NCBI GenBank assembly: GCA_046290575.1
Contig: JBKAGX010000012.1
Location: forward strand, 396 to 64,395
DNA: 64,000 bases
Reading direction: 5' to 3'
DNA from: Alphaproteobacteria bacterium
GTDB lineage: Bacteria > Pseudomonadota > Alphaproteobacteria > SMXS01
Position numbers and translations under genes: made by a program. The notes below the pieces were generated by a model. That model did no database searches and had not been told where the DNA came from. It was given only the letters and a program-made list of their open reading frames with translations. Positions 4,003 to 64,000 of the stretch are shown piece after piece. Each line of letters starts with the position of its first letter. Position 1 is the first letter of the stretch.

Positions 4003-4111
4003 GTAGTTTTAGACCTCGACAGATCAGGCGAGAGGGCGTTTATGCCCCAAGGAAGCATCTATGTATATGACGGCTTTCTGACAGATATGTTTCGGCCCCC
4101 GCAAGAACGGG

Positions 4112-5511: not shown

Positions 5512-5532
5512 GCTTCCCGTATCTTGCGCCCC

Positions 5533-6384: not shown

Positions 6385-6397
6385 AAGGAGTGTTGAT

Positions 6398-7432: not shown

Positions 7433-7445
7433 ACGTTACGGATTT

Positions 7446-7478
7446 CCCTCTCCCCTGAGGGGAGAGGGTTAGGTTGAG
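7446..7478. repeat. REP-like palindromic hairpin, copy A (CCCTCTCCCC-TGA-GGGGAGAGGG plus TTAGGTTGAG tail)
   Basis: Perfect 10-bp stem with a 3-nt loop, read directly. Related copies lie at 7818-7854 and 7935-7970. Confidence 0.85.
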
Positions 7479-7487
7479 CGGCAAAAA

Positions 7488-7859
7488 ATGTCAGTGGAAA
7501 GAGCCCGCAACCTTCGACGGAACCAAACCGACGCCGAGAAACGGCTTTGGTGCTTCTTGCGCAATCGCCAACTGGCGGGCTTCAAATTCAACCGGCAAGT
7601 GCCTGTCGGTCCGTATGTCGCTGATTTCATTTGCAGAACAGAAAAGCTGATTATCGAAATCGACGGCGGTCAACACGCCTTTCAAAAGCAAGCTGATGCG
7701 AAGCGGACCAAATACCTTGCGGCCAAAGGGTATCGGGTCATCAGGTTCTGGAACAATGACGTGCTAAAGAATACCGAGGGCGTCTTGGAGACAATACGGA
7801 GCGAGCTAATGAATAGTCCCCCTCACCCCGACCCTCTCCCCCGAGGGGAGAGGGAGTAG
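7488..7859 (+). CDS. DUF559 / Vsr-like endonuclease-fold domain protein
   Basis: 123 aa: ARNLRRNQTDAEKRLW..FLRNRQLAGFKFNRQ..VGPYVADF.C...KLIIEIDGGQH......D..R...L...GY.V.RFWNNDV. The last ~14 codons (PPHPDPLPRGERE*) are supplied by REP copy B. Confidence 0.8.
   Translation: MSVERARNLRRNQTDAEKRLWCFLRNRQLAGFKFNRQVPVGPYVADFICRTEKLIIEIDGGQHAFQKQADAKRTKYLAAKGYRVIRFWNNDVLKNTEGVLETIRSELMNSPPHPDPLPRGERE
7818..7854. repeat. REP-like palindromic hairpin, copy B (inverted orientation: CCCCTCACC-CCGA-CCCTCTCCCC-CGA-GGGGAGAGGG)
   Basis: Same 10-bp stem as copies A and C, but the GGTGAGGGG-type tail is on the opposite side, as CCCCTCACC. Confidence 0.85.
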
Positions 7860-26402: not shown

Positions 26403-27349
26403 TATAGAATTCCGAACGTCCAGCCTTCAGTGCGGCGGACCATATCGGACATGGAAGGCGGATTCCAGAAGTCGGGTTCGCCTGCAAGATGGCGCAGCGC
26501 CGCAGCCGTGATCAGCGCATCAGTTTGGTCGTCTGAGTGCGACTTAGGTACATTGTCATCCCCGCGAAGGCGGGGGGCCATGTCGATCATCGCACCAGGT
26601 TTCAAAATGGATCCCCGATCGCGCCGCTCCGCGGCTTCTCGGGGATGACAGTCTAAGCAGGTTTTAAAATAGCTGAGCACTCGATCAAGCCGCGCCTTGT
26701 CCCGCACTTTGCCGGTCCCGGCACCGGCCATGCGGACAAAGGCAGTTGGGAACGTTTCGACCAGTACCAAGTGTGCCCCCTCAATCTCATCGAACGGCCA
26801 GACGGCCACGTTCGTGTGTTGCTTCAGCGCCAGCAAGAACCGCATGCCGGCAAGCGACGACTTGCCCACCTGCCGGGCGCCGACAAGGTTGAAGACCGAT
26901 TCAGGCGTACCCAATCCCTGATCCAGCGTTGCTTGCTCTGCTGCGCGCAACCGCCGCTCGAACAGATCTCCCCGAGTGCCGCGCTGATGAAAGTACCGGT
27001 TATAGGGCGGCGTTTCGGCGAACCGGCCTCCATAAAGGTCGAAATCATCGGCACAGCAGGTTTCCAGCATGGTCCAGAACGCTTGCGGATTTGCGGGGTC
27101 GACTTCAAGGCCGGGGAAGTACGATTTCCGGTCCGCCCGGGGAAAACAAAAAGAGAAGTCCAGCCCACAAAGGACTCGTTTTCCATCAGTGACCTGCGTC
27201 ATCAGCCAGTCTGCAACGCCTGACCGGGTCCAGGGGCCCTCGATCATCGCCAGCCTGCCAGCGCCATCACAGGCTGCAACCTGCAGGCCCGGCAAGCGCG
27301 GCCCCTTGGCGCCTGACCAGTCGATCCCGACAAACAGGTCGAAGGTCAC
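26402..27349 (-). CDS. RNase-H-fold (DUF429-like) hypothetical protein carrying an in-frame repeat-element insertion
   Basis: Probable GTG start at 27349, forming a GTGA overlap with the rarA stop. FVGIDWSGA near the N-terminus; DDQTDALITAAAL and EGWTF near the C-terminus. Family call is from memory only. Confidence 0.6.
   Translation of the reverse strand: MTFDLFVGIDWSGAKGPRLPGLQVAACDGAGRLAMIEGPWTRSGVADWLMTQVTDGKRVLCGLDFSFCFPRADRKSYFPGLEVDPANPQAFWTMLETCCADDFDLYGGRFAETPPYNRYFHQRGTRGDLFERRLRAAEQATLDQGLGTPESVFNLVGARQVGKSSLAGMRFLLALKQHTNVAVWPFDEIEGAHLVLVETFPTAFVRMAGAGTGKVRDKARLDRVLSYFKTCLDCHPREAAERRDRGSILKPGAMIDMAPRLRGDDNVPKSHSDDQTDALITAAALRHLAGEPDFWNPPSMSDMVRRTEGWTFGIL
26543..26657. mobile_element. 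MITE/REP-like palindromic element inside the ORF above
   Basis: Terminal inverted repeats CTTAG..TGTCATCCCCG (26543-26564) and CGGGGATGACAGTCTAAG (26640-26657). Internal hairpins CCCCGC-GAAG-GCGGGG (26560-26575) and GCCGC-TCC-GCGGC (26623-26635). It translates as ...MAPRLRGDDN... Confidence 0.65.
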
Positions 27350-32751: not shown

Positions 32752-33399
32752 TCAGGCCGCCAACGCCCGTTCAATCTGTTCTGCAACTTCGTCCATCTTG
32801 GCCATACCATCGACCTGAGACAGAACACCGCGCCCTTTGTAATAGGGCAACAGCGGCTCCGTCTCGCGGTGATAGGTCTTCAGCCGGGATCGGACAGTTT
32901 CTTCATTATCGTCGGCACGCCGAACCAGATTAGCAGAGCCACAGCCGTCGCAGGCGCCCTCCGTCTTGCTCGGCTTGTAACTGTCGTGGAAACCTTCACC
33001 ACAGTCGCCGCAGGAATAGCGCCCGGTGATCCGCTCCACCAGCGCATCATCGTTGACCTTCATCTCGATAACGTGGTCCAGCTTGAGACCCTTTTCCTGC
33101 AGCATCGCATCAAGCGCTTCGGCCTGGCCGGTATTACGCGGGAAGCCATCCAGGATGAAGCCGCCTGCGCAATCATCCTGAGCGATCCGGTCGGAGATGA
33201 TACCGACGACCACCTCGTTCGGCACCAGTTCACCGCGCTTCATGATTTCGTCGGCGATTTTGCCAACATCGGTGCCGGCCTTGACTGCTTCACGCAGCAT
33301 ATCGCCGGTCGAAAGCTGAACAAAGCCGTGCTTGTCCTGCAGCATCTTCGCCTGCGTGCCTTTACCGGCACCGGGCGGCCCCAGAAGAATAATGTTCAT
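32752..33399 (-). CDS. adk: adenylate kinase (Cys4 lid form)
   Basis: MNIILLGPPGAGKGTQA, with lid CGDCG....CDGCG. Confidence 0.97.
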   Translation of the reverse strand: MNIILLGPPGAGKGTQAKMLQDKHGFVQLSTGDMLREAVKAGTDVGKIADEIMKRGELVPNEVVVGIISDRIAQDDCAGGFILDGFPRNTGQAEALDAMLQEKGLKLDHVIEMKVNDDALVERITGRYSCGDCGEGFHDSYKPSKTEGACDGCGSANLVRRADDNEETVRSRLKTYHRETEPLLPYYKGRGVLSQVDGMAKMDEVAEQIERALAA

Positions 33400-42172: not shown

Positions 42173-42478
42173 TTAGACCCCTGTCGTGATATCGATGGTC
42201 TCGCCCTCGACGAGGGTGACGATCGCTTTCTTGTAATCCGGACGGCGACCCGGGCGACCCCGGAAACGCTTGATCTTGCCGTTCTGGCGCAGCGTGTTCA
42301 CGGCCTTGACCTTGACGCCGAAAACACCTTCGACAGCGTCCTTGATCTGCGGTTTGGTCGCATCGATCGCGACCTGGAAGGTCACCTGATTGTGCTCCGA
42401 TCCCAGCGTCGACTTTTCGGTGACGATCGGGCGCACCAACAGATCGAAATGCTTTGCCTTTGCTGTGACCTTGCTCAT
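42173..42478 (-). CDS. rplW: 50S ribosomal protein L23
   Basis: 101 aa: D.L..PI.TEKST......N...F.V...A.K..IK.AVE..F.VKV..VNT. Confidence 0.97.
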
Positions 42479-43099: not shown

Positions 43100-43945
43100 C
43101 TAGTCCTTCTTCTCTGCGTCGCCGTCATCCGGCGCTGCATTATCGTCAGACACGTCTGCCGCTGGCGCTTCCTCTGAAGACGCTTGTTGTTCAGGCGCTT
43201 CCTCTGCTGGAGCTTCGTCAGCTGCCGCTTCTTCCGGTGCGGCTTCAACTTCTTCCGGCTCCGGTGCGGCGGTTTCCCGCAACGCCGCTGGATACGGTGC
43301 ATCTTCGGGACGCGCCCGCTTGACCGCATCGCTGATCAGAATCCAGCCCGTCTTGGGGCCGGGAACAGCGCCACGAACCAGCAACAAGCCGCGCTCGACA
43401 TCCGACTGGACGACTTCCAGATTCTGAATGGTTACCCGCTCAGACCCCATGTGGCCGGCCATCTTTTTGCCCTTGAACACCTTGCCCGGGTCCTGACACT
43501 GACCGGTCGACCCATGCGACCGGTGCGAAATCGAGACACCGTGGGTCGCCCGCAGACCGCCAAAGTTATGGCGCTTCATCGCGCCCGCAAAGCCCTTACC
43601 CTTACTGGTGCCGGTGACGTCAACCTTTTGACCAGGCACAAAGTGCTCGGTGGTGAGCTCTGCACCGACGTCAATCAGCGCATCCTCAGACACCCGAAAC
43701 TCAGCCAGACGGCGCTTTGGCTCAACATTCGCCTTGGCGAAGTGGCCGCGCATCGGGCGTGACACGCGGTTGGGCTTCACAGCGCCAACGCCAAGCTGGA
43801 CAGCCGTATAGCCATGTTTTTCTTCGGTCTTTTGAGCAACCACCTGGCAGTTGTCGACTTTGAGAACGGTCACCGGAACATGGTTTCCGTCGTCGGCAAA
43901 TACCCGGGTCATTCCGACCTTTTGTGCAATCAATCCAGAGCGCAT
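43100..43945 (-). CDS. rplC: 50S ribosomal protein L3 with a long acidic C-terminal tail
   Basis: Start at ATG 43945 ([16 protein letters not shown]), 281 aa. A normal L3 core is followed by a ~60-aa Ala/Glu/Pro/Asp-rich tail. Confidence 0.96.
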
Positions 43946-43955
43946 TGGCCCGTTC

Positions 43956-44270
43956 CTACCCTTGCAACTTGATTTCGACGTCGACACCAGCTGCAAGATC
44001 CAGCTTCATCAAGGCGTCAACGGTCTCCGGCGTCGGATCGATAATGTCCAACAGCCGCTTATGCGTACGGATCTCGAACTGTTCGCGCGACTTCTTGTCG
44101 ATATGCGGCGAACGCAGAACCGTAAATTTTTCAATCTTCGTCGGCAGCGGAATGGGACCGCGCACACGCGCACCCGTGCGCTTGGCCGTGCCCACGATCT
44201 CGCCTGTCGACTGATCGAGAATCCGGTGATCAAACGCCTTCAGGCGGATGCGGATATTCTGATTTTCCAT
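43956..44270 (-). CDS. rpsJ: 30S ribosomal protein S10
   Basis: Start at ATG 44270 ([19 protein letters not shown]), 104 aa. Confidence 0.98.
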
Positions 44271-44331: not shown

Positions 44332-45522
44332 CTACTCGACGATTTTGGATACGACGCCTGACCCGACGGTGCGTCCACCTTCACGGATGGCAAAGCGCAG
44401 GCCCTCATCCATGGCGATCGGCACGATCAGCTCGACATCCATCGAGATGTTGTCGCCCGGCATCACCATCTCCGTCCCGTCCGGCAGGCTCACCATTCCT
44501 GTCACATCCGTCGTCCGGAAATAAAACTGCGGACGATAGTTGGTGAAGAACGGCGTATGACGGCCACCCTCTTCCTTCGTCAGGATATAGGCCTCGGCCT
44601 TGAACTTCGTGTGCGGCGTGATCGAGCCAGGCGCGGCAAGAACCTGCCCACGCTCAACACCCTCACGGTCAACACCACGAAGCAGTGCCCCGATGTTGTC
44701 ACCCGCCTCACCGCGGTCAAGCAGCTTGCGGAACATCTCAACACCCGTGCACGTCGTCTTCGACGTATCCTTGATCCCGATGATCTCAATCTCGTCGCCG
44801 ACATTGATCACACCGCGCTCAATACGGCCCGTCACAACCGTGCCACGGCCCGAAATCGAGAACACATCCTCAATCGGCATCAGGAACGGCTGGTCAACCG
44901 GACGGTCAGGCTGCGGGATCGCCTCATCAACCGCCGCCATCAGCTCAAGGATCTTCTCCTTGCCGATATTGTCGTCACGGCCTTCAAGCGCGGCAAGCGC
45001 CGAACCCGACACGATGGGAATATCGTCGCCCGGGAAGTCATAAGAGCTCAGCAGCTCACGTACTTCCATCTCGACAAGCTCAAGCAGCTCTTCATCATCA
45101 ACCTGGTCGACCTTGTTCAGGAACACCACGATCGCCGGCACGCCAACCTGACGGGCCAGAAGAATGTGCTCGCGCGTCTGCGGCATCGGGCCGTCAGCTG
45201 CGTTCACAACCAGGATCGCCCCATCCATCTGCGCTGCACCCGTGATCATGTTCTTCACATAATCAGCATGCCCAGGGCAGTCGACATGCGCGTAGTGACG
45301 GTTCTCCGTCTCATACTCAACATGCGCTGTCGAAATCGTAATGCCGCGCTCGCGTTCTTCAGGCGCCTTATCAATCTCGTCATAAGCGGTGAACGTGGCT
45401 CCGCCGGCTTCACCCAAAACCTTCGTGATCGCCGCCGTAAGGGTCGTCTTGCCATGATCAACATGGCCAATCGTCCCCACATTCACATGCGGCTTCGTGC
45501 GTTCAAACTTCTCCTTAGACAT
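44332..45522 (-). CDS. tuf: elongation factor Tu
   Basis: 396 aa: [32 protein letters not shown]. Confidence 0.99.
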
Positions 45523-48840: not shown

Positions 48841-50061
48841 TTACGGGACCGCGGGACCAGCCACAATACCATCATCAAACAGACGGGCGATCTCGCCCTC
48901 ATCCAGCCCGACAACGTCTGCGAGAATCTCTTCCGTATGCTGCCCGAGCACGGGGGCAGGCTGCGGTGGCTGCCGCTCGAAGGCGCTGAACTCCAGCGGT
49001 GTTCCAGGCACCAGATAACTGCCGATTCCCGGTTGGTCTACCATCTCGAACATTGGGTGGTCCGTGGAAATATCCGGATCTTCGGCCACCGCGCTCTTAA
49101 AACTGCGAAACGGTGTCCAGGTTACGCCATGTCCATCGAAGGCCTGGGCGAAGTCCTCAATCCGACGGACGCGGAACCATGACTCCAGCAAAGCGGTGAT
49201 TTCCCTGCGGGCCTTGAATCGATCTCCTTCCTGACTCAAATTCAGGCCAAGCCGTTGGCCCAAAGCATCTATTTCGGCTTCGATGCCGGTGACCGCCAGG
49301 AGCCCGCTCCATTGTCGGCGGGTCAACGCAACAATCATGATTCGCCCGTTGGCGGTTTCGAAATCCTGTCCATAGGCGCCATAGAGTGCATTGCCATATT
49401 TGGGGCGGTCGACATTGTTCACCGTGACTTCGCCGATAATGCCCAGATTGCCCATCATGGCGGTCGCAACATCCTTTAGCGGGATTTCAACCAGCTGCCC
49501 TTCGCCGGTCGCACGGCGATGCCGTTCCGCCGCCAGCACCGCCAGCGCGGCCTTTTGCCCGGTAATGCAATCCCAAGCAGGCAAGACATGCGCAACCGGG
49601 TCCGATGAGCCTTCAGGCCCTGTCGCGTTTGGAAAGCCGACGGCAGGATTCACCGTATAGTCAACGGCGGGGCCACCACCTTTGGTACCCTCAACGCACA
49701 CCATGATCAGATCCTCGCGCCGGGACTTCAGCTCGTCGTAGTCCATCCAGCCCCGGACACGAAGATTGGTCAGAAAAACGCCCGAATCAGGCCCTGGCGC
49801 GCAGATCAGGTTTGTCACGATTTCGCGGCCGCGGGGCGAGGACAGGTCAACGGCAATGGAACGCTTGCCTTTGTTGAGGCCAGCCCAGAACAGGCTTTTA
49901 CCGTCGCGTGTGACAGGCCAACGGTGCTGATCAAGCCCGCCGCGAAGACGGTCGAAGCGGATGACATCAGCGCCCAACTGCGCCAGGGTCATCCCCGCCG
50001 ACGGCGCGGCAACAAACGCGCTGCCCTCGACGATACGAAGCCCCTCCAACAATTTTACCAC
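48841..50061 (-). CDS. family III (CaiB/BaiF) CoA-transferase, possibly mesaconyl-CoA C1-C4 transferase (Mct)-like
   Basis: 406 aa. The N-terminal block RIVEGSAFVAAPSAGMTLAQLGADVIRFD is typical of this family. The subfamily call is from memory only. Confidence 0.8.
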   Translation of the reverse strand: MVKLLEGLRIVEGSAFVAAPSAGMTLAQLGADVIRFDRLRGGLDQHRWPVTRDGKSLFWAGLNKGKRSIAVDLSSPRGREIVTNLICAPGPDSGVFLTNLRVRGWMDYDELKSRREDLIMVCVEGTKGGGPAVDYTVNPAVGFPNATGPEGSSDPVAHVLPAWDCITGQKAALAVLAAERHRRATGEGQLVEIPLKDVATAMMGNLGIIGEVTVNNVDRPKYGNALYGAYGQDFETANGRIMIVALTRRQWSGLLAVTGIEAEIDALGQRLGLNLSQEGDRFKARREITALLESWFRVRRIEDFAQAFDGHGVTWTPFRSFKSAVAEDPDISTDHPMFEMVDQPGIGSYLVPGTPLEFSAFERQPPQPAPVLGQHTEEILADVVGLDEGEIARLFDDGIVAGPAVP

Positions 50062-50076
50062 CCTATTCTCTCCTGC

Positions 50077-50943
50077 TTAATCTTTGCGCCAGCGAACCTC
50101 CCCCTGCATCCCCACATGGCCTGCGCCGCTGGCGGTACAGAGTGATTGACGATTATCGGTTTCCGGGCAGCCATGAACGGCAACCGTGTCAAAATCGAAC
50201 AGAGGCCGGACGGCCCGAAACATAAATTTCTCAGCAATGCGACCGGGATTGTGACGGCGCGCCGCGCCCATGATCAGCATCGCCTGCAACGGGCCATGCA
50301 CGACCAGACCAGGATATTTTTCCCGCTCCGTGGCGTAGTCGCGGTCATAGTGAATGCGATGACCATTGAAGGTCAGCGCTGAAAACCGGAACAGCAGCAC
50401 CGGGTCGACCTCAACCGGATCCGACCAGATTGTGTTTTCGGGCACGGACGTCGGTTTGGGCGGCACGAATTTGTCCGGCATGGCAATAAAAACGATGTCC
50501 TGTTCTTCCTCCACCGCCACGCCGCGCGGCGAGGACACAGTATGGCGCACGGTGACAAAAACCATCGGCCCGGCGCGGCCATGTTTTTCCGCGATATTGA
50601 GAATTTCCGACGTTCTCATGATCTCGTCACCGAGCCGCAAGTCTCCGGAGAATACGATCCGGCTGCCGGCCCACATCCGCCGTTCGAGCGAAATTGGCGG
50701 CAGGAAATCGCCCCGTTTTGGATGGCCGTCGGAGCCGACCTGCGACATTGGCGCATTGGGCAAAAAATAGAGCCAATGCCAGAGGGGTGGCAATGTAGCG
50801 CCGTCAGACGACCTGACAGTGTCATCTTCGAGAGTGGCTGCGAGGGCTCGCACAGGCGCGGGGTAGACCCTGTCGGAGAGCCTCTCGCTCCGCCCGACCC
50901 AGTCTTGAAGATCGATATCCCCTGACGCGCCGTGACTATCCAT
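50077..50943 (-). CDS. double hot-dog (FAS1-like / MaoC-like) acyl-CoA dehydratase, possibly mesaconyl-C4-CoA/itaconyl-CoA hydratase-like
   Basis: Start at ATG 50943 (MDSHGASGDIDLQDWVG...), 288 aa, with LPPLWHWLYF and FNGHRIHYD blocks. Adjacent to the CoA-transferase gene (15-nt gap). Confidence 0.6.
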   Translation of the reverse strand: MDSHGASGDIDLQDWVGRSERLSDRVYPAPVRALAATLEDDTVRSSDGATLPPLWHWLYFLPNAPMSQVGSDGHPKRGDFLPPISLERRMWAGSRIVFSGDLRLGDEIMRTSEILNIAEKHGRAGPMVFVTVRHTVSSPRGVAVEEEQDIVFIAMPDKFVPPKPTSVPENTIWSDPVEVDPVLLFRFSALTFNGHRIHYDRDYATEREKYPGLVVHGPLQAMLIMGAARRHNPGRIAEKFMFRAVRPLFDFDTVAVHGCPETDNRQSLCTASGAGHVGMQGEVRWRKD

Positions 50944-51084
50944 ACAATATCCCCGAAACAGCGGGACCGCTGATCTCATTCATCACATATGATTAGAAGT
51001 CTACTCGATAAACCGCAGTCGTCCATTGCGCTTTGCTTTCAACGATTTTCAACTGTAAAAAAGAAGTATATTTGGAGACCAATA

Positions 51085-51600
51085 ATGTCTGCGCGGGTTG
51101 TATTTCTGGGATTACTGCTTGCATCCGTATTTGCGATGCCGGTCCAGGCTGCGAAAGTTGAAGTGGGCGATACACCGCCCGAATACCTGGGCAAAGATCC
51201 CGATGGAGAGAAAATTCATCTTAGTGAATACCGGGGTAAAGTTGTGGTGGTCACTTTTTGGGCCACGTGGTGTCCGCCCTGCATGATCGAACTACCGATG
51301 CTCGAGGCACTGCAACGCCAAGCAGGACAAGAGCGGATGAGGGTGATCGCCATCAATTTCAAACAGGGCCGCAAGGCGTACCATCAAATCATTCGCCAGC
51401 TGGACGAATTTGAAATGATAATCGCCTATGACTGGAAAGGTCGAGTAGCGGGCCGATACGGTGTCAAGGGCCTGCCTCACATGTTCATAATAAACAAGCA
51501 AGGCAAGGTCGCCGATATCCACCTGGGATATAGTGAAAAGGCGATCGACCCGATCATTGACAGTCTGAACGCACTGCTTCTTGAAGACTACACACCCTAA
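51085..51600 (+). CDS. TlpA/ResA-like periplasmic thiol:disulfide oxidoreductase
   Basis: ATG 51085 follows GGAGA. Signal MSARVVFLGLLLASVFAMPVQA and thioredoxin motif FWATWCPPC. Visibly more AT-rich than its neighbours. Confidence 0.85.
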   Translation: MSARVVFLGLLLASVFAMPVQAAKVEVGDTPPEYLGKDPDGEKIHLSEYRGKVVVVTFWATWCPPCMIELPMLEALQRQAGQERMRVIAINFKQGRKAYHQIIRQLDEFEMIIAYDWKGRVAGRYGVKGLPHMFIINKQGKVADIHLGYSEKAIDPIIDSLNALLLEDYTP

Positions 51601-51657: not shown

Positions 51658-54600
51658 CTATTCGCCAGGTGTCTCGGGTGCCGCATCACCATCCCCGGGG
51701 GGGATCATGAACGCGTCGCCGACCAGCTCGTCGTCATCCGTCTGGGCGTCCAGATATTCACGGTCACGCCGGGCAGCCACCTTGCGCAGCTGCGCCATGA
51801 GGTTACCTGTACCGGCCGGGATCAACCCGCCGACGATGACATTTTCCTTCAGGCCGTAAAGCTGATCAGTCTTGCCGTTGACCGCCGCTTCGGTGAGCAC
51901 CCGCGTCGTCTCCTGGAAGGACGCCGCAGAGATAAAGGAACGTGTCTGCAGCGACGCTTTGGTGATACCCAGCAGAACCGGTTCCGACTTGGCAATGGTC
52001 AAGCCTTCTTCGGCGGCCTTCGCATTGATCTCGTCGAACTCGACACGGTCAACCTGCTCACCCTTCAACAAGGTGGTTTCGCCGCCATCGGTGATCTCGA
52101 CCTTCTGCAGCATCTGGCGAACAATCGTCTCGATGTGCTTGTCGTTGATCTTCACACCCTGCAGCCGGTAGACCTCCTGGATCTCGTTGACGAGATAGTT
52201 GGCCAGCGCTTCAACGCCCTGCACTCGCAGAATGTCATGCGGCACCGGATTGCCTTCGAGCAGATATTCACCGTGCTCGATGAAGTCGCCTTCACGCACA
52301 CTGATATGCTTGCCCTTGGGGATCAGATATTCGAGGCCCTTGGCTTCGTCCGAACCTTCTTCGGCATCGCGCGGCTTGATAATAATCCGCTGCTTGTTCT
52401 TGTAGTCCTTGCCGAATTCCACATAGCCCGAATTCTCGGCGATGATGCCGTGATCCTTGGGCTTGCGCGCCTCGAACAGTTCCGCCACCCGCGGCAGACC
52501 ACCGGTGATGTCACGGGTTTTCGCGGCTTCACGCGGGATGCGGGCGATCACGTCACCAGCATGCAGATCGTCACCGTCATTGACGGTCAAGATCGCATCC
52601 ACCGAGAGCATGTAGCGAGCTTCGAGACCGTTCGACAGCTCGATCACCTCACCATCCTTGTCGCGCAAGGTGATACGCGGCCGCAAATCCGACCCCTTGG
52701 GCTGGGAGCGCCAATCGACCACGACGCGCTGGGAAATACCGGTCGTCTCGTCCATGACGTCGCGGACGGAGACACCATCGACAAGGTCGATAAAGTTCGC
52801 GATACCACCACGCTCGACGATGATTGGAATCGTATAGGGATCCCACTCCGCCAGTTTGGTGTCCTTCTCGGCTTTCTGTCCGTCATCGACCAACAGATGC
52901 GACCCATACGGCACCTTGTGGCGTTCGCGCTGACGGCCTGTTGCATCCGTCACCACGATCTCACAATTCCGGCTCATGGAAACCAAACGGCCCTGCGAGT
53001 CCTCAACCACATTTCGGTTCTCAAGCGTGATCGTTCCATCGGTCGACGCCTCGACCGCTGACTGCTCGGCAAACTGGGCCGTGCCGCCAATATGGAATGT
53101 CCGCATGGTCAGCTGAGTGCCCGGTTCACCAATGGACTGTGCCGCGATGACGCCGACGGCTTCACCGATATTGACCGGCGTGCCCCGAGCCAGGTCACGA
53201 CCGTAGCACTTGCCGCAGACACCGCCTGTTGCCTCACAGGTCAGCACCGAACGGATACGAACCGTTGTAACACCGGCGGTTTCGACCTTTTCGACTGCGA
53301 CCTCGTCCAGCTCTGTGCCTTTTTTGATGAGGATGTCACCCGAAACCGGATCTTCAATATCAGTGGCAGCCGTACGGCCAAGAATGCGGTCAACCAGCGG
53401 TTCAATAACTTCACCGCCTTCGATCACTTCGCTAACAGTCAGGCCGCGCTCCGTACCGCAATCCTCCTCGATGATGATGCAATCCTGCGCAACATCGACA
53501 AGGCGGCGGGTCAGATAACCGGAGTTGGCCGTCTTCAGCGCCGTATCGGCCAGACCCTTACGGGCACCGTGGGTCGAGTTGAAGTACTCGAGCACGGTCA
53601 GGCCTTCCTTAAAGTTCGAGATGATCGGCGTCTCGATGATCTCGCCCGACGGCTTGGCCATCAGACCGCGCATGCCGGCCAGCTGCTTCATCTGAGCGGG
53701 CGACCCACGCGCACCGGAGTGCGACATCATATAGATCGAGTTGATCGGTTGTGCCTTGCCGCTCTCCTCATCAACCTGAACCGAAGAGATCCGCTGCATC
53801 ATTTCATCAGCAACCTTGTCGGTACACTGCGCCCAGGCGTCGATGACCTTGTTGTACTTCTCACCCTGGGTGATCAGACCTTCGGCATATTGCTTTTCAT
53901 ACTCCTTGGCCAGATCACGGGTCTGGTCAACCAAGCCGGACTTGGTATCGGGGATGACCATGTCGTCCTTCCCGAAAGAGATTCCAGCCAGCGCGGCCTG
54001 ACGGAAACCGATGCCCATGATCGCATCGGCAAACAGAACCGTCTCTTTCTGACCGCAATGGCGATAAACCACGTCGATTACTTCAGAGATCTGCTTCTTG
54101 GCGAGCGTCCGGTTGATAATGTCGAAGCTGACTTCCGGATTGCGCGGCAGGTGTTCCGCCAGCAGCATACGGCCCGGCGTCGAGTCGACGACGAGACTGA
54201 CGGGCTTATTGTCCGCATCGACCGTCTCATAGCGGCACTTGATCTTGGCATGCAGCGAGACGGAGCCGGAATCGAGCGCCTGACGGATCTCCGGCACCCC
54301 GGAGAAAACCATGCCTTCACCATCCTCGTTGTCATATTCGAGGGTGAGATAATAGAGGCCCAGGACAATATCCTGGCTGGGCACGATAATCGGTTTGCCG
54401 TTGGCCGGGCTGAGGATGTTGTTGGTCGACATCATCAGTACGCGCGCTTCAAGCTGGGCTTCCAGCGACAGCGGCACATGGACCGCCATCTGATCGCCAT
54501 CAAAGTCAGCATTAAAGGCGGCACAGACAAGCGGGTGAAGCTGGATGGCCTTACCTTCGATCAACACCGGCTCGAACGCCTGAATGCCAAGTCTGTGAAG

Positions 54601-55890
54601 TGTCGGCGCGCGGTTGAGCATGACCGGGTGTTCGCGGATCACCTCGTCGAGGATGTCCCACACTTCGGGCCGCTGGTTCTCGACCATCTTCTTGGCCTGT
54701 TTGATCGTCGTCGACAGGCCTTTCTGGTCGAGGCGCGAATAGATAAACGGCTTGAACAGCTCGAGCGCCATCTTCTTGGGCAACCCGCACTGATGCAATT
54801 TGAGTTCAGGCCCCACCACAATGACCGAGCGGCCGGAGTAATCGACACGCTTGCCGAGCAGGTTCTGACGGAACCGGCCCTGCTTGCCTTTCAGCATATC
54901 GGACAGGGACTTCAGGGGGCGCTTGTTGGCGCCGGTGATGGTCCGACCGCGGCGGCCATTGTCGAACAGCGCGTCGACGGCTTCCTGCAGCATGCGCTTT
55001 TCGTTGCGGACGATGATGTCCGGCGCGCGCAGCTCGATCAGCCGCTTCAGGCGGTTGTTACGGTTGATCACCCGGCGATACAGATCGTTCAGATCGGAGG
55101 TCGCAAAACGGCCGCCATCCAGCGGGACCAGCGGGCGCAGTTCGGGCGGAATGACCGGGATCACTTCCAGGATCATCCACTCCGGCCGGTTGCCGGATTC
55201 CATGAACGCTTCAACGACCTTCAGCCGCTTGATCAGCTTTTTCGGCTTCAGTTCGGACTTGGTCTCGGCCAGCTCGACGCGAATCTCTTCGCGAATCTGT
55301 TCGAGATCGAGGCCTTCCATGATGATCCGGATGGCTTCAGCGCCGATACCGGCGGTAAACGCATCGTCGCCATAGGTATCCTGCGCCTCGATATACTCAT
55401 CATCGGACAGCAGCTGACCCTTCTTCAGCGGCGTCAGGCCCGGCTCAATAACCACATGGCTTTCGAAATAGAGAATCCGCTCCAGGCCCTTCAGCGTCAT
55501 GTCGAGCAAGAGACCAATGCGCGACGGCAGGCTTTTCAGGAACCAGATATGCGCAACCGGCGCCGCCAGTTCGATATGGCCCATGCGCTCGCGGCGTACC
55601 TTGGACAGCGTGACCTCGACACCGCACTTCTCGCAGACGATGCCGCGATACTTCATGCGTTTGTACTTGCCGCAAAGGCACTCATAATCCTTGATCGGAC
55701 CGAAAATCCGTGCACAGAAAAGGCCGTCCCGCTCCGGCTTGAAGGTGCGGTAATTGATCGTCTCGGGCTTCTTGATCTCGCCGAAAGACCAGGACCGGAT
55801 CCGGTCCGGGCTGGCGATCGAAATGCGGATCGCGTCGAAGGTCTGTGCCTTGGACTGCGGCCCAAAAACGTTCATGACCTCTTGATTCAT
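51658..55890 (-). CDS. rpoC: DNA-directed RNA polymerase subunit beta-prime
   Basis: 1410 aa, with NADFDGDQM catalytic motif and the zinc-binding [15 protein letters not shown]. Confidence 0.99.
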
Positions 55891-55954: not shown

Positions 55955-58900
55955 CTATTCTTCGGTGTTGACCAGCTCGACATTCAGGGCCAGCGAGCGC
56001 ATTTCCTTCACGAGAACGTTGAAGGATTCAGGAATACCGGCTTCGAACGTGTCGTCACCCTTAACGATCGCCTCGTAGACCCCGGTCCGTCCAGCAACGT
56101 CATCCGACTTCACCGTCAGCATTTCCTGCAGCGTGTAGGCTGCGCCGTAGGCCTGAAGTGCCCAAACCTCCATCTCGCCGAAGCGCTGGCCACCGAACTG
56201 CGCCTTACCGCCCAGCGGCTGCTGGGTAACAAGGCTGTAGGGACCAATCGACCGGGCGTGGATCTTGTCGTCCACCAGGTGATGCAGTTTCAGCATATAG
56301 ATGTAACCGACGGTGACCTTGCGGTCGAACGGCTCGCCGGTACGCCCGTCATAGAGCGTCGACTGGCCCGACCCATCGAGACCGGCGGCGACAAGCGCAT
56401 CGACGATATCGGCTTCCTTGGCACCGTCGAAAACAGGGGTTGCCATCGGAATACCCTTTGTGACGTTGCCGGCAAGCTCCTTCAGGCCGTCGTCATCAAG
56501 ATCCTTGATGACTTCGTCATAGTGCCTGTCCCGGTAGAAATCCTTCAGCTTCTTGCGCAGCTTATCGGTCTTGCCGCTGCGCTGAGCAGCCTGCAACACC
56601 TCGCCCACCTGCCGGCCAAGGCCAGCAGACGCCCAGCCCAGATGGGTCTCAAGAATCTGCCCCACATTCATCCGCGATGGCACGCCGAGCGGATTAAGCA
56701 CGATATCGACATTGGTGCCGTCCTCCAGGAACGGCATATCTTCGATCGCCGCAATACGCGAGATCACGCCCTTGTTGCCATGACGGCCAGCCATCTTGTC
56801 GCCCGGTTGCAGCTTGCGCTTCACCGCGACGAAGACCTTGACCATCTTCATGACACCCGGCAGCAACTCATCGCCGCGCTGCAGCTTGTCGACCTTTTCT
56901 TCAAAGCGGGCCTGAAGCGCCTTTTTGGCTTCCTCGAAGTGCTTCTGGAGCGCCTCGATATCGGCCTGACGGTCTTCGTTCTTCACCGCAATCTGCCAGA
57001 GCTGGCCACGTGTCAAATCGTCGATAACCGTCTTGGTCACCTTACCGCCGGTCTTGATGCCCTTGGGGCCACCGGCAATCGTCTGATTGAGCAACAAGTC
57101 CTCGAGCCTGCCATAGGAGCTGCGCTCAAGAATAGCGAGTTCGTCATCGCGATCCTTCGCAAGGCGCTCGATCTCCTCACGCTCAATGGTCAGCGCGCGT
57201 TCGTCCTTGTCGACGCCGTGGCGGTTGAAGACGCGGACCTCGACAACCGTGCCTGAGTCGCCCGGCGGAATACGCAGCGAAGTATCGCGGACATCCGAAG
57301 CTTTTTCGCCGAAAATGGCGCGCAGCAGCTTTTCCTCCGGCGTCATCGGTGATTCGCCCTTGGGCGTCACCTTTCCGACCAGAATATCACCGGCTGAGAC
57401 TTCGGCACCAATATAGACGATTCCCGCCTCATCCAGGTGGCTGAGACTCTCCTCGCCGACATTGGGAATGTCACGGGTGATTTCTTCCGGACCCAGCTTG
57501 GTATCGCGGGCCATCACCTCGAACTCTTCAATATGGATGGAGGTGAAGACGTCGTCCCGCACCATCCGTTCGGAGATCAGGATCGAATCCTCGAAATTGT
57601 ATCCCATCCAGGGCATGAACGCGACGAGCACATTGCGGCCCAGCGCCAGTTCGCCCAGATCCGTCGACGGACCATCGGCAATGATATCGCCCTGTTGGAC
57701 CTCGTCACCGACGCGCACCAGCGGACGCTGGGTGATGCAGGTGTTCTGGTTCGATCGCTGGAATTTTACGAGATTGTAGATATCCACGCCTGAAGAGCCC
57801 GCACCGACATCGGACGTGGCACGGACGACCACGCGGGTGCTGTCGACCTGATCGACGATACCGCTGCGTTCCGCAACGACGGTCACACCGCTGTCACGGG
57901 CCACAACCTCTTCCATGCCGGTGCCGACGAGCGGCGCCTGTGCCTGCAGCAGTGGAACAGCCTGCCGCTGCATGTTCGAGCCCATCAGCGCACGGTTGGC
58001 GTCATCGTTTTCCAGGAATGGAATCAATGCCGCGGCGACGGACACAAGCTGCTTGGGCGACACGTCCATGAAATCAATCGTGTCCGGCGTCACCATGACA
58101 AACTCGCCTGCCTGACGGCAGCTCACCAGATCATTGGTGAACCGGCTTTGGCATCCAGCTGGGCGTTCGCCTGGGCAATGGTGAACTTGCCCTCTTCCAT
58201 GGCCGACAGGTAAATGACCTCGTCGGTCACAACACCATTTTCGATCTTGCGATAGGGTGACTCGATAAAGCCGTATTTGTTCACCCGCGCAAAGGTCGCC
58301 AATGAATTGATCAAGCCGATATTGGGGCCTTCAGGCGTCTCAATCGGGCAAATCCGGCCATAATGAGTGGGGTGCACATCACGCACCTCAAAGCCCGCGC
58401 GTTCGCGGGTCAGGCCGCCCGGGCCCAACGCCGAAAGGCGCCGCTTGTGCGTCACTTCGCTGAGCGGGTTTGTCTGATCCATGAACTGGCTGAGCTGGCT
58501 GGAGCCAAAGAACTCACGCACGGCAGCCGCAGCCGGCTTGGCATTGATCAGATCATGCGGCATGACGGTGTCGATTTCGACCGCGCTCATGCGCTCCTTG
58601 ATCGCCCGCTCCATGCGCAGCAGACCGATGCGGTACTGATTTTCCATCAGCTCACCAACCGAGCGGACACGCCGATTGCCGAGGTGGTCGATATCGTCGA
58701 TCTCGCCCTTGCCGTCTTTCAGGCCCACCAGGGTTCTGATGACTTCAAGGATATCTTCCTTACGCAGGGTCCGGTGCGTGTCTGGTGCGTCCAGCGCCAG
58801 ACGCATGTTCATCTTCACCCGGCCCACGGCAGACAGATCATAGCGCTCGGAATCAAAGAACAGACCGTCGAACAGCGCCTCAGCGGTTTCGCGGGTCGGC

Positions 58901-60048
58901 GGCTCGCCGGGACGCATGACCCTGTAGATTTCGACCAGCGCCTGCTCGTAGGATTCGACCTTGTCGGCCATCATTGTATTACGCAAATGCGCGCCAATAT
59001 TGATGTGATCAATGTCGAGCGTCGGCACCTGCTTGAGGTTCGCCGCCGCAAATACTTCAATATGTTCCTCGGTGATTTCCTCACCGGCTTCAATGTAGAT
59101 TTCCCCTGTCTCGGCGTTGACAAGATCAATCGCGGCATAGCGGCCGATAAGGTCTTCCGCAGGGACCAGCACCTCTTTTACGCCGTCCTTTTCAAGCTGG
59201 CGGGCCAGCCGCGGGCTGAGCTTTTCTTCAGCCTCGACCAGCACTTCGCCCGTCTTGGCGTTGGCGACCGGATAAGGCAACTTGCTGCCACGCATCTTGG
59301 CGGCATCGAAGGGGCGCTTCCAGCCGTTCTTGGCCTTGCCATAGACAACCTGATCGTACCCGAAATCCAGGATTTCTTCGCTCGACATCCCCAGCGCGTA
59401 GAGCAGCGTTGTCACCGGAATCTTTCGGCGGCGATCGATACGCGCGTGGATAATATCCTTGGCGTCGAACTCAAAATCCAGCCAGGAGCCGCGATAGGGA
59501 ATCACCCGGGCGGCAAACAGGAATTTACCGGAGGAGTGGGTCTTGCCCTTGTCGTGGTCGAAGAACACACCGGGAGACCGGTGCATCTGCGAAACAATCA
59601 CCCGCTCCGTTCCATTAATGACGAAGGTGCCGTTGGGCGTCATCAGGGGCATGTCGCCCATGTAGACTTCCTGCTCCTTGATATCGAGCACGGACTTGGC
59701 GCCGGTATCCTCGTCAACTTCAAAGACGATCAAACGCAGCGTCGCCTTCAGCGGCGCCGCATAGGTCATGTCACGCTGCTGACACTCTTCAACGTCGTAT
59801 TTCGGCGGCTCGAACTCGTAACGGACGAATTCCAGCGACGCCGTCTCGGCGAAATCACTGATCGGGAACACGGACTTGAAGACGCCCTGCAAACCGGTGT
59901 CGTCACGCTCCGAGGCCGACTCCTCCATCTGCAGGAACTGGTCATACGAGTTCTTTTGCACTTCGATGAGATTAGGCATCGAAGTGACTTCCTGGATGTG
60001 GCCGAAAAAGTTGCGGATCCGCTTACGCCCAGTGAACGTGTTTGCCAT
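55955..60048 (-). CDS. rpoB: DNA-directed RNA polymerase subunit beta, interrupted by a 1-nt frameshift near 58146 (ORFs 58123..60048 and 55955..58126)
   Basis: The N-half ORF of 641 aa ends ...[16 protein letters not shown]. The C-half ORF of 723 aa starts at GTG 58126 and reads [57 protein letters not shown]. Adding one base restores ...[15 protein letters not shown]... Confidence 0.95.
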
Positions 60049-60160: not shown

Positions 60161-60541
60161 TTACTTGAGCTCGACAGTCGCACCGGCTTCCTCAAGCTTG
60201 CCCTTGAGTTCCTCGGCTTCTTCCTTGTTGACGCCTTCCTTGACGGGCTTGGGTGCGCCCTCGACAAGGTCTTTGGCATCTTTGAGGCCCAGGCCAGTGA
60301 TGGCACGAACCTCTTTAATGACGTTGATCTTCTTGTCACCAGCGGCGGCAAGAATAACGTCGAACTCGGTCTGCTCTTCTGCAGCCGCCGCACCGGCGTC
60401 TGCGGCGCCACCGACAGCAGCAACCGCGACAGGTGCTGCTGCAGAAACGCCCCACTTCTCTTCAAGAAGCTTTGAAAGCTCGGCCGCCTCTAGGACGGTG
60501 AGCTCCGAAAGCTCGTCAACCAACTTTTCCAAGTCAGCCAT
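60161..60541 (-). CDS. rplL: 50S ribosomal protein L7/L12
   Basis: 126 aa: [37 protein letters not shown]...[12 protein letters not shown]-type C-domain. Confidence 0.99.
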
Positions 60542-60599
60542 GGTCAGGTCTCCTTAATAGGCCCCAGAGCTTGTCGCTCTGATCGGTTCATGGTTCAGG

Positions 60600-61115
60600 T
60601 CAGGCCGCTTCACTGCTGCCGTAGGCACCAAAAACGCGCGCCAATTGTCCAGCCGGTGCTTGCGTCACACCTGCTATCCGCGTTGCCGGCGTGTTCAACA
60701 TGCCGACAAGCTTGGCCCGCAATTCATCCAATGACGGCATCGACGCCAGCGACTTAACGCCGCTTACATCGAGTTCCGTCTCGCCCATCATGCCGCCGAG
60801 AACGATCAGCTTGTCGTTCTCCTTGGCAAACGCCACCGAAGCTTTCGCAGCGGCCACCGGATCATCCGAATAGGCAATCGCGGTCGGCCCGGTGAACAAA
60901 TGGGCGATGGGTGAACAAGGGGTGTCTTCGAGAGCAAGCTTTGTCAGCCTGTTCTTCGTGACCCGGAATCGGGCGCCAGCATCACGCATTTGCGTGCGCA
61001 GATCGGTCATTTCAGCCACCGTCAAGCCGGAGTAGTGCGTAACTACAACGGCTGCGGCGTCCTCAAAGACGTCCCTGAGCTCAGCGACCAGTTCCGTTTT
61101 CTGGGTACGGTCCAC
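60600..61115 (-). CDS. rplJ: 50S ribosomal protein L10
   Basis: 171 aa: [40 protein letters not shown]. Confidence 0.98.
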
Positions 61116-61459
61116 TTTGTTAATCTCCAGTGTCCCCGCGGTTCGGCCCTAAAGCCTCCCCGCGAACCCTCGTTAAGGCCCGATTGACGGCATCGCCGCC
61201 AGTCGAACCCGGTTCCCCTGTCCAAGGGCCCGTGGACCTGTCACCTGCCGCTCGGGGCCCCTGGCACCCCTTGGGATGCCAGAGCGGTCCGGTTTCCCGA
61301 ACCAAAGTTCCAAATCTCGTTCCCCCGTCTATGCAGGCCGGTTTCCCGATTAGGCCACACAAGGTGGCACCTACAGTCTCGGACAGGCGGGCGGTTTGTT
61401 CTTATCCGCCCTGTCCCCGGCTGCCGAAGCCTCCGGGGCATCTCTTGACCAGCCGGCGC
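61116..61459 (-). promoter_or_regulatory. long GC-rich structured leader between rplA and rplJ (candidate L10/L12 autoregulatory leader plus promoter)
   Basis: A 344-nt non-coding gap with several strong hairpins, for example GACAGGGCGG...CCGCCCGCCTGTC and CCCCGG...CCGGGG on the minus strand. Confidence 0.35.
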
Positions 61460-62155
61460 TTAGCCGCCCAGGCTGGCCACATCCACTTTCACACCAGGCC
61501 CCATGGTCGACGTCACCGACACCTTCTGAACGAAGGTCCCCTTGGCGCCCGACGGCTTGGCTTTGATCACGGCGTCGGTGAAAGCACGCACATTTTCAAC
61601 GAGCGCGCCTTCGGAAAAGCTCGCCTTGCCGACACCCGCATGGATCAAGCCGGCTTTTTCGACACGGAACTCGACCTGGCCGCCCTTTGCCGCCTTGATT
61701 GCCTCTGCGACATCGGGGGTCACCGTACCCAGCTTGGGGTTGGGCATCAGGCCACGCGGGCCAAGAACCTTACCCAGCCGGCCCACAACCGCCATCATGT
61801 CCGGCGTTGCGATCACCCGGTCGAAATCCATCTGGCCACCCTGGATCGATTCAGCCAGATCTTCGGCGCCAACAATGTCGGCGCCTGCAGCCTTGGCTTC
61901 TTCAGCTTTGTCATCCTTGGCGAAGACGGCGACACGGACCGTCTTGCCGGTGCCGTTCGGCAGCTGCACCACACCACGGACCATCTGGTCCGAATGGCGC
62001 GGGTCGACCCCCAGGTTCATCGCCACTTCGACGGTCTCGTCGAACTTGGACGTGGCACACTGTTTGATCAGCGCCAGCGCTTCCTCCAGCGAATAATCGC
62101 GTTCGCGATCAAATGAATCGCGGGCGGTCTTGTTCTTCTTTGTCATTCTGGCCAT
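61460..62155 (-). CDS. rplA: 50S ribosomal protein L1
   Basis: Start at ATG 62155 ([27 protein letters not shown]), 231 aa. Confidence 0.97.
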
Positions 62156-62159
62156 GGCG

Positions 62160-62588
62160 CTAGTCCCTAACCTCGTAACCCATTGAACGGGCCGAGCCGG
62201 CAATCATCCTCATCGCCGCCTCCACGTCATTGGCGTTCAGATCAGGGTTCTTCGCCTCGGCAATTTCCCGCAGGTCGTTTTGCGTGACATAGCCGGTGAC
62301 TTCACGGCCCGGTGCGCTGGCGCCCTTTTTCTGCTTGGCGGCCTTCTTCAGGTAGAAGGACGCGGGCGGCGTTTTGGTGACAAAGGTAAAGCTGCGATCC
62401 GCATAGACCGTAATCTTGGTCGGAATCGGCGTATCCTTGTCGTAGTCCTGCGTCTTTGCGTTGAACGCCTTGCAGAATTCCATAATGTTAACGCCGCGCT
62501 GGCCCAGCGCCGGCCCGATGGGCGGTGATGGTGATGCGTTGCCTGCAGGCACCTGCAGATTGATGTAACCGTCGATCTTCTTTGCCAT
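62160..62588 (-). CDS. rplK: 50S ribosomal protein L11
   Basis: 142 aa: [43 protein letters not shown]. Confidence 0.99.
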
Positions 62589-62703
62589 GGTTTTCCCGTC
62601 CTTTCGATTTTAGTGCTGGCGCTTTCGCGCCGTCTGGGAATGCGCGGTTCGGTCATGGCGAACCTCCCGCACAAAGGCGCTCATGGCACCTTGTGAAATC
62701 TTG

Positions 62704-63234
62704 TTATCCTTTTTCGACCTGGCTGTACTCCAGCTCTACCGGCGTGGCGCGTCCAAAGATCGAAACAGAGACCTTTAACCGGGCGCGCTCCTCGTCGACA
62801 TCCTCGACTTCGCCGTTAAACGATGTGAACGGGCCATCGATAACCCGGACCTGCTCGCCAATCTCGAACGTAATGGACGGCTTCGGCCGGTCGATGCCCT
62901 CTTGCACCTGGTTCAGGATCCGGTTGGCTTCGCGATCCGAAATCGGCACCGGTTTGTTGCCGTTGCCCAAGAAGTTCGAGACCTTGGGAATTTCGCGCAC
63001 CAGATGATAGGTGTCGTCGGTCAGATCCATTTTAGCCAGAACATAACCAGGGAAGAACTTCCGCTCAGCGGCAACGCGCTGCCCGCGGCGCACCTCTACC
63101 ACTTCTTCCATCGGCACCAGAACTTCCTCGAACAAATCGTCCAGGCCCTGCAGAACAGCCTGTTCCTTGATCGCCTCGGCGACCTTCTTCTCGAAGTTCG
63201 AGTAGGTCTGAATGATGTACCACTTTGCCGTCAT
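62704..63234 (-). CDS. nusG: transcription termination/antitermination factor NusG
   Basis: Start at ATG 63234 (MTAKWYIIQTYSNFEKKV), 176 aa, with a KOW region GEQVRVIDGPFTSFNGEVEDVD. Confidence 0.97.
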   Translation of the reverse strand: MTAKWYIIQTYSNFEKKVAEAIKEQAVLQGLDDLFEEVLVPMEEVVEVRRGQRVAAERKFFPGYVLAKMDLTDDTYHLVREIPKVSNFLGNGNKPVPISDREANRILNQVQEGIDRPKPSITFEIGEQVRVIDGPFTSFNGEVEDVDEERARLKVSVSIFGRATPVELEYSQVEKG

Positions 63235-63253
63235 CGTTCGCGTACCAATCCTA

Positions 63254-63448
63254 TCAGCGGCCCGGAAGCACCCAGCCGACCAGCTGGGAGAACACGAAAT
63301 CGACAAACATGAAGAACAACGCGGCCAGAATCACCATGACGAAGACCATGCCGGTCGAGATCAAGGTTTCCTTGCGCGTCGGCCAAACCACTTTGGAAAC
63401 TTCCTGGCGGACCTGCCGTACAAATTGTCCTGGACTTGTTCGTGCCAT
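63254..63448 (-). CDS. secE: preprotein translocase subunit SecE
   Basis: 64 aa: FVRQVRQEVSKVVWPTRKET followed by a single TM helix. Confidence 0.93.
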   Translation of the reverse strand: MARTSPGQFVRQVRQEVSKVVWPTRKETLISTGMVFVMVILAALFFMFVDFVFSQLVGWVLPGR

Positions 63449-63513
63449 AAACTTCTATCACCCGGTTTGGTGCCGATGGCTCTTCGCCTGGCTGACCAAT
63501 GCATCCCAAATAG

Positions 63514-63589
63514 TGGCAGGAGTGGAGGGACTCGAACCCACAGCCCCCGGTTTTGGAGACCGGTGCTCTGCCAATTGAGCTACACTCCT
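63514..63589 (-). tRNA. tRNA-Trp (anticodon CCA)
   Basis: The reverse complement reads AGGAGTGTAGCTCAATTGGCAGAGCACCGGTCTCCAAAACCGGGGGCTGTGGGTTCGAGTCCCTCCACTCCTGCCA, 76 nt, with loop CTCCAAA. Confidence 0.95.
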
Positions 63590-63699
63590 AATTTATCTCG
63601 GTTTTCCTGAACTTGCCTGCCGCCTGAACGAACCACAACGCATCCGGGGACGACCCTATGGCCGCCCCCGGTGCGTTTGAAATTCCTTCGAGCCGTTTC

Positions 63700-63728
63700 T
63701 TTTAAGGTGACGAAGTGGGTTTTGTCAA
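63700..63728 (-). promoter_or_regulatory. candidate promoter for tRNA-Trp-secE-nusG (TTGACA-17 nt-TTAAAA)
   Basis: On the minus strand, a perfect -35 TTGACA at 63728-63723 and a weak -10 TTAAAA at 63705-63700. Confidence 0.35.
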
Positions 63729-63765
63729 CCTCACGCGCCCCGCGGAAAGCTCGAAATCGCCGAAA

Positions 63766-64000
63766 CTACTCGACGATTTTGGATACGACGCCTGACCCGA
63801 CGGTGCGTCCACCTTCACGGATGGCAAAGCGCAGGCCCTCATCCATGGCGATCGGCACGATCAGCTCGACATCCATCGAGATGTTGTCGCCCGGCATCAC
63901 CATCTCCGTCCCGTCCGGCAGGCTCACCATCCCCGTCACATCCGTCGTCCGGAAATAAAACTGCGGACGATAGTTGGTGAAGAACGGCGTATGACGGCCA
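63766..64000 (-). CDS. tuf: elongation factor Tu, second copy (3' end only; continues beyond the window)
   Basis: The sequence from the stop codon at 63766 matches 44332-44566, with 2 mismatches seen (CATCCCCGT versus CATTCCTGT). Confidence 0.97.

Follow-up and report, generated by a model that had tools for sequence, protein, structure and literature searches.

Active RNA polymerase of Escherichia coli was reportedly assembled in vitro from fragments of its beta subunit by Severinov and colleagues. Split beta is also known from archaea and jumbo phages (PMC7598289; NCBIfam B'' model), and a viable rpoB frameshift mutant of E. coli has been described, in which 5% slippage on CCC-AGG-C and raised translation initiation yielded 61–71% of the wild-type amount of RpoB despite a +1 insertion (PMC7022156). 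Here, rpoB of an alphaproteobacterial metagenome-assembled genome (MAG; GCA_046290575.1) was analyzed in a 64,000-nt stretch of contig JBKAGX010000012.1, referred to as the window. In the deposited sequence this gene occupies two minus-strand open reading frames (ORFs) that meet in a GTGA stop/start overlap. A deficit of one base was located exactly, in an otherwise perfect gene in which no recoding signals were found. It is highly likely that the missing G is a sequencing or assembly indel, or at most a very recent lesion, and that it marks neither a split subunit nor a programmed frameshift.

Read on the coding (minus) strand, the junction is GAT GCC AAA GCC GGT TCA CCA ATG ATC TGG TGA. The N-terminal ORF (58123..60048, minus strand; 641 aa, ATG start) contains residues 1–631 of authentic beta, and its final seven codons (AGSPMIW) are out of frame. 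Alignments of beta chains from the PDB to this half reach residue 631–634. The seven out-of-frame codons, GCC to TGG (58126..58146, minus strand), stand in place of the conserved GRFTNDL, which corresponds to residues 627–633 of E. coli beta. The C-terminal ORF (55955..58126, minus strand) comprises 723 codons from GTG and corresponds to residues 639–1364 of the repaired beta; its frame is open upstream to 58330. Within the GTGA overlap (58123..58126, minus strand), the premature TGA of the shifted frame (58125-58123) lies over the Val639 codon GTG of the true frame (58126-58124). Pfam assigned Rpb2_1, Rpb2_2, Rpb2_3 and positions 1–36 of Rpb2_45 to the N-terminal half, and positions 45–66 of Rpb2_45, Rpb2_6 and Rpb2_7 to the C-terminal half. 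Combined, the two ORFs hold all six Pfam Rpb2 domains, with Rpb2_45 ("external 1 domain", 66 profile positions) cut in two by the break. Thus, coordinates, translations and domains confirmed the original prediction that the two ORFs are halves of RNA polymerase beta meeting in GTGA.

The size of the lesion was derived from comparison with the three closest relatives (L081, L082 and L083). The two ORFs span 4094 nt, whereas rpoB of each of these relatives has 4095 nt and encodes 1364 aa. The indel site lies at 58142..58149 (minus strand), where the window reads AAAG^CCGG and the relatives read AAx GGC CGx, so that one G of a GG pair is absent between 58146 and 58145, with AAAGGCCGG written as AAAGCCGG at 58145/58146. 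The relatives carry the codons GGT AAG TTC or GGC CGC TTC/TTT, compared with G-CC GGT TCA in the window. The k-mers that tell the alleles apart at this site are GATGCCAAAGGCCGGTTCACC and GATGCCAAAGCCGGTTCACC; GATGCCAAAGGCCGGTTCACCAATG denotes the intact and GATGCCAAAGCCGGTTCACCAATG the deleted allele. As had been predicted, a single nucleotide inserted after AAA-G, namely a G, fused the two ORFs into a protein of 1364 aa, which aligned without gaps to all three relatives, with identities of 94.3%, 86.8% and 86.6%. The proposed check of whether the closest relatives carry the missing base was also run, and all three do, in a single ORF.

The same picture emerged from a collection of 5.8 billion proteins. 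The closest homologue was 94% identical and had 1364 aa, and the next ones, at 87% identity, had this length as well. The best 120 homologues listed (77–94% identity) were all single chains of 1339–1382 aa. Against the RpoB equivalog model TIGR02013, the repaired protein scored 1932 bits (cut-off of 801), with residues 9–1359 covering profile positions 2–1238 of 1238. The ratio of non-synonymous to synonymous substitution rates (dN/dS) relative to the closest relative was 0.033 for the N-terminal half and 0.028 for the C-terminal half, at a dS of about 1. Beyond the one-base deficit, rpoB contained no second lesion. Since both halves are constrained and nothing else in the gene is damaged, the break is either very recent or not biological. 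Thus, the lesion was isolated, lay in an otherwise intact and constrained gene and was absent from relatives, as is characteristic of an assembly or sequencing indel.

The deposited annotation was traced through exact look-ups of protein accessions in the MAG record, which gave MFN3233771.1 for RpoC, MFN3233772.1 for RplL, and numbers ending in 773 for RplJ and 775 for RplK. The accessions of RpoC and RplL are consecutive although rpoB stands between the two genes; thus, rpoB has no protein record. The NCBI pipeline gives no protein to a frameshifted pseudogene. Because the numbers run on without a gap, the depositor's annotation very probably treats rpoB as a pseudogene. In total, 13 accession anchors (those four and the numbers ending in 707, 716, 727, 728, 735, 738, 752, 764 and 767) matched the ORF count in every interval. 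rpoB is, thus, the lone broken gene of the window and the sole one of about 70 genes in about 64 kb without a product, corresponding to a local indel density of about 1 per 64 kb. Pfam analysis of 10 overlapping or adjacent ORF pairs revealed no other split gene in the window, and no other frameshift was found by inspection of the rplC/rplD and rpsG/fusA regions and of all gaps, or by accession counting. About 30 genes for ribosomal proteins and translation, as well as rpoA and rpoC, had normal lengths. Scans of the window for tRNA genes and Rfam families detected tRNA-Leu and tRNA-Trp only, and nothing near rpoB.

Taken together, rpoB of this organism would be an ordinary single gene for a beta subunit of 1364 residues, and the deposited contig would have lost one G of a GG pair, most likely through a consensus error left over from assembling or polishing the metagenome. 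With this G missing, the frame shifts and gives seven wrong codons and then TGA. To an ORF lister, what remains of rpoB opens at the earliest start-type codon, the GTG of Val639, which by chance lies over that TGA. The base is most likely absent from the assembly rather than from the DNA of the organism. The original prediction had named an indel error in the assembly as the most economical cause. This stands as the best-supported explanation, although short of proof.

Public read sets provided some information on the possible origin of the sequence. The Logan contig SRR22269038_27633 (L084; 3297 nt, secE-nusG-rplKAJ) was 100.000% identical to the window at 60499..63795, so the organism is present in run SRR22269038. 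This run is an Illumina 2x150 library of the bacterial community in a long-term diatom culture (Skeletonema tropicum), and the companion run of the project, SRR22262228, contains QitanTech nanopore reads above Q7 (PMC9872673). From these runs, the project authors built a genome by Flye/Canu assembly and Pilon/NextPolish polishing (PMC9872673). For this organism, complete products of some genes were on record in Logan, while those of rpoB, rpoC, rpoA and rplL were not. Exact look-ups and protein searches in Logan returned no product across the junction for either allele. A neighbouring Logan contig was guessed from the k-1 overlap, and none of the ten 5'-truncated RplL products considered was on record. 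Isolated 1-nt indels are a typical residue of workflows that combine nanopore reads with polishing, above all for community members of lower abundance, and short-read metagenome assemblers also leave occasional indels.

Several points weigh against an assembly error. It was inferred and not seen in reads. The deletion lies in a GG dinucleotide and not in a long homopolymer, which is less typical of long-read error. Elsewhere the contig is clean, and for 3.3 kb it matches an Illumina-only contig base for base. A consensus indel would be less expected in a MAG made purely from Illumina data, although such indels do arise from metagenome assemblers. The workflow with nanopore reads is tied to the MAG only via the presence of the organism in run SRR22269038 (PMC9872673).

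Alternatively, the deletion may be real and non-functional, i.e., a null allele in part of the diatom-culture population, be it in dead-end cells, in free DNA or as a minority variant, which the assembler took as consensus while viable cells are intact. An otherwise flawless and strongly constrained rpoB would be expected after such a very recent event. The frequent breaks of Logan contigs for this organism would fit graph branching, a sign that is not specific. A lethal allele, however, should not gain the majority needed for consensus; moreover, no direct sign of two alleles was obtained, the protein collection containing no fragment of the same organism across the junction. A null allele is unlikely as the source of the deposited sequence.

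Further records of this rpoB were sought in other collections. A gene-position index contained no rpoB record that exactly matched either half, whether started with V, with M or at the internal ATG, or the repaired 1364-aa protein. A scan of genome contigs with the repaired protein gave, among the at least 600 rows listed, which matched through universal rpoB motifs, a best identity of 78% and no genome of the same species. A degenerate DNA pattern over the junction, covering either allele, had 0 matches in JGI metagenomes, and a query of a phage collection with the junction region gave no match. Searches of the protein collection with 213-aa and 80-aa junction queries list matches of about query length and, hence, mainly fragments of other broken or partial rpoB genes; the best were 74–88% identical, and none came from this organism. 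Among the 120 matches listed for the junction segment, dozens were rpoB pieces of 72–140 aa, for each of which the longest carrying contig exceeded 10 kb. Two contigs with broken rpoB were opened for inspection. In L085 (ERZ25039505 contig_11935, 1.87 Mb; 3262-7471), rpoB was distributed over at least 10 ORFs and rpoC was shattered too, and in L086 (GCA_030757985.1, 2.87 Mb; 3430-7729), rpoB was present in 4 ORFs. Both contigs illustrate how indel noise can stay uncorrected in deposited assemblies, and broken rpoB ORFs are routine in public assemblies.

If the deletion were real, full-length beta could still be made by a shift of the reading frame, and restoration of the frame requires a shift of -1 (or +2). 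The original prediction had judged programmed frameshifting and transcriptional slippage unlikely for want of a slippery heptamer and a long homopolymer, and both absences were verified. No X_XXY_YYZ heptamer was present in any frame from 58330 to 58123, and no homopolymer of six or more bases occurred anywhere in rpoB, with only AAA at the shift site. Runs of at least four identical bases were absent from the 8-codon zone; CCCC at 58327 and AAAA at 58241 lie far upstream. Folding of the RNA from 58040 to 58160, in a model without pseudoknots, gave a minimum free energy of -46 kcal/mol (z = -1.65), and 16 of 200 shuffled sequences folded as well.

The idea that a programmed recoding site evolved in the rpoB gene of this lineage, be it for ribosomal frameshifting or transcriptional slippage, has nothing in its favor beyond the frameshift itself. 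The three closest relatives contradict it, since they carry the extra base and show no shift. Conservation of a -1 shift in relatives was found neither there nor among the best 120 homologues listed, which are single-chain. A slippery heptamer is missing as well, folding without pseudoknots showed no significant structure, and transcriptional slippage would call for a long A/T run at the site, where the only A run is AAA. Thus, the doubt about programmed recoding was borne out, and such a site is barely conceivable here.

Non-programmed frameshifting (-1 or +2) between AAA at 58149 and TGA at 58123, boosted by rpoB autoregulation, has a precedent in the viable E. coli mutant, and no stop interrupts the -1 frame anywhere in the zone. 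By inspection, however, none of the codons GCC GGU UCA CCA AUG AUC UGG UGA permits re-pairing of the P-site tRNA at -1. The zone has no pair like CCC-AGG, no X_XXY_YYZ and no run of four or more bases, and downstream folding is not unusual, as given above. In addition, judged by E. coli positions, the break presumably falls outside the rifampicin-resistance clusters, so that no obvious selection would favor the lesion. Production of full-length beta in this way is extremely unlikely.

In order to judge the GTGA overlap, every 1-nt deletion was simulated in the repaired rpoB, and a stop overlapping a true-frame ATG, GTG or TTG by 4 nt was counted as an overlap. Such overlaps arose for 59% of the positions (39 of the 87 distinct premature stops). 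The geometry arises because xTG codons precede A-initial codons, here at an ordinary Val codon, and with 59% of simulated deletions giving it, GTGA has no evidential weight. The junction looks designed, yet in a GC-rich gene such an overlap is what a 1-nt deletion can statistically be expected to leave behind.

For the case that the deletion is real, the overlap had been taken to predict a two-piece beta, in which translation would end at TGA 58123-58125 and ribosomes would re-initiate at GTG 58126. A 4-nt stop/start overlap does exist at the junction, and like geometry occurs at genuine junctions in the window, at rarA (27346-27349) and at 1804-1807, 33396-33399 and 42475-42478; split beta is known in archaea and jumbo phages. 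The proposed likeness to the rarA junction held as far as the overlap is concerned, whereas coupling found no evidence, given the chance expectation of 59% of 1-nt deletions in rpoB. GTG 58126 is the first start-type codon in the frame of the C-terminal half after a stop; a start at this position, thus, reflects the ORF lister's definition of a start and nothing more. No Shine–Dalgarno match was present in the 20 nt before GTG 58126, unlike most correctly started genes of the cluster, which have AGGAG-like sites 6–9 nt upstream. Accordingly, neither mark of a coupled gene pair, an overlap beyond chance and a Shine–Dalgarno sequence inside the upstream gene, was found. Re-initiation at this GTG is very unlikely.

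Genuine neighbours in the window often share four nucleotides, as seen for rarA with the ORF that follows it (GTGA), secY with adk, rplD with rplW, and the pair at 1804-1807, and this geometry is not peculiar to the rpoB break.

The two chains would be an N-fragment of 641 aa with a junk tail of seven residues and a C-fragment of 723 aa without GRFTNDL, and these would have to assemble into RNA polymerase. In an ungapped alignment to E. coli beta (residues 578–693), the break falls at E626|G627, with V634 as the presumptive first residue of the C-fragment. The break lies outside the regions 226–350 and 938–1040, which are dispensable in E. coli beta (PMC2939025). The exact E. coli positions of the engineered split sites of beta were not found in a literature search. 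An AlphaFold model of a homologous fragment predicts a compact external-1 domain (predicted local distance difference test scores of 86–98), with the break in a turn, LD(A/D)K|G, and the lost GRFTNDL probably forming one short strand and the residues that lead into the following strand.

It had also been asked whether the break coincides with the archaeal B''/B' split site, and this comparison was made with local hidden Markov model alignments. The archaeal B'' model NF007175 aligned up to residue ~591 (profile position 472 of 496), and positions 89–162 of the B' model TIGR03670 aligned to residues ~608–704. The archaeal boundary, thus, lies approximately between ~591 and ~608, i.e., ~25–40 residues upstream of the break, as far as local alignments place it. 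The break at 631/632 falls in the B'-homologous part and does not match the conserved archaeal split position. In contrast to a naturally split beta, which has its own initiation signals and loses no residues, the locus shows no Shine–Dalgarno sequence, and GRFTNDL is lost or replaced. Also, no split occurred among the best 120 homologues listed. With a chance overlap, no Shine–Dalgarno sequence, a bisected external-1 domain and the best 120 relatives listed all single-chain, the idea of a two-piece beta made through GTGA coupling received no support, and assembly of two such fragments into RNA polymerase is strongly to be doubted.

Nothing found favors a real and fixed deletion. If it were nevertheless real and fixed, this organism would be a rare natural bacterium that tolerates a frameshift in rpoB, via split beta or intrinsic frameshift suppression, which would bear on the modularity of beta and on the prediction of phenotype from genotype. 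With regard to split beta, it would represent a natural bacterial case at a site unlike the archaeal and phage splits. For the favored consensus indel, the consequence concerns data quality, since a public MAG carries a broken rpoB, an essential marker gene in wide use for phylogeny and for estimates of MAG completeness.

The genomic context of rpoB is the usual nusG-rplKAJL-rpoBC cluster, with the expected order rplKAJL-rpoB-rpoC. rplL is the upstream neighbour (60161..60541, minus strand; MFN3233772.1), and rpoC, intact and encoding 1410 aa, is the downstream one (51658..55890, minus strand; MFN3233771.1). Owing to the 1-nt deficit, the sequence as deposited has no single uninterrupted ORF between rplL and rpoC. 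From rpsL to rpoC (48841-51597), the window contains minus-strand genes at 48841..50061 and 50077..50979 and a plus-strand ORF at 50974..51597, which by eye from its translation resembles a secreted thioredoxin/TlpA-like protein. In L081, L082 and L083, one GFA-family gene adjoins rpoC where the window has these three genes.

Other features of the window were noted in passing. tuf is duplicated, with a complete copy at 44332-45522 (minus strand) and the 3' end of a second copy at 63766-64000 (minus strand). The two copies are identical in 233 of 235 nt and differ at 63931 and 63934. The source contig (64,679 nt) necessarily stops within this second copy, and the repeat itself seems to have caused the contig to end there. 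The EF-Tu of the window (396 aa) sits in a 90%-identity cluster that is represented by a 95-aa protein and lists mostly S19 proteins as members, apparently an artefact of database clustering and not a feature of the window. The rplC ORF (43100-43996, minus strand) has an unusual acidic C-terminal tail of ~70 aa rich in Ala, Glu, Pro and Asp. A 128-codon open frame at 7473-7856 (plus strand), in a gene-poor gap of 941 nt, has by eye the look of a DUF559-type endonuclease.

In comparison with known systems, the locus resembles the archaeal B''/B' and jumbo-phage split beta in having N- and C-terminal polypeptides encoded by adjacent genes. It differs in the position of the break, which lies inside the external-1 domain at 631/632, whereas the archaeal boundary (~591–608) precedes this domain. 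Naturally split subunits are conserved from lineage to lineage and keep all their residues, whereas the break in the window is known from one contig only, with seven conserved residues replaced or lost. Overlapping stop/start coupling (ATGA/GTGA) shares with the junction the 4-nt overlap of TGA with a start-type codon, but the GTG of the window has no upstream Shine–Dalgarno sequence, and its overlap is expected by chance. The E. coli rpoB mutant with a 1-nt insertion at Ser531 (Huseby et al. 2020, PMC7022156) is similar in that a frameshift midway along rpoB leads into a few out-of-frame codons (9 in the mutant and 7 in the window) and then a premature stop. The mutant has its +1 insertion in the rifampicin-resistance region, together with the shift-prone site CCC-AGG-C, and evidence from DNA, cDNA, Western blot and mass spectrometry confirmed it, while the lesion in the window removes one base (-1) at the equivalent of E. 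coli position 626/627 and has no recognisable shift-prone site. From the artefacts of metagenome and long-read assemblies that the NCBI annotation pipeline PGAP labels as 'frameshifted' pseudogenes, the locus differs in that the window has one lesion in ~64 kb and that this lesion is at a GG pair and not in a long homopolymer. It shares with them a one-base deficit in a perfect, constrained and essential gene without a protein record, in an organism found in a project that combined nanopore assembly with short-read polishing.

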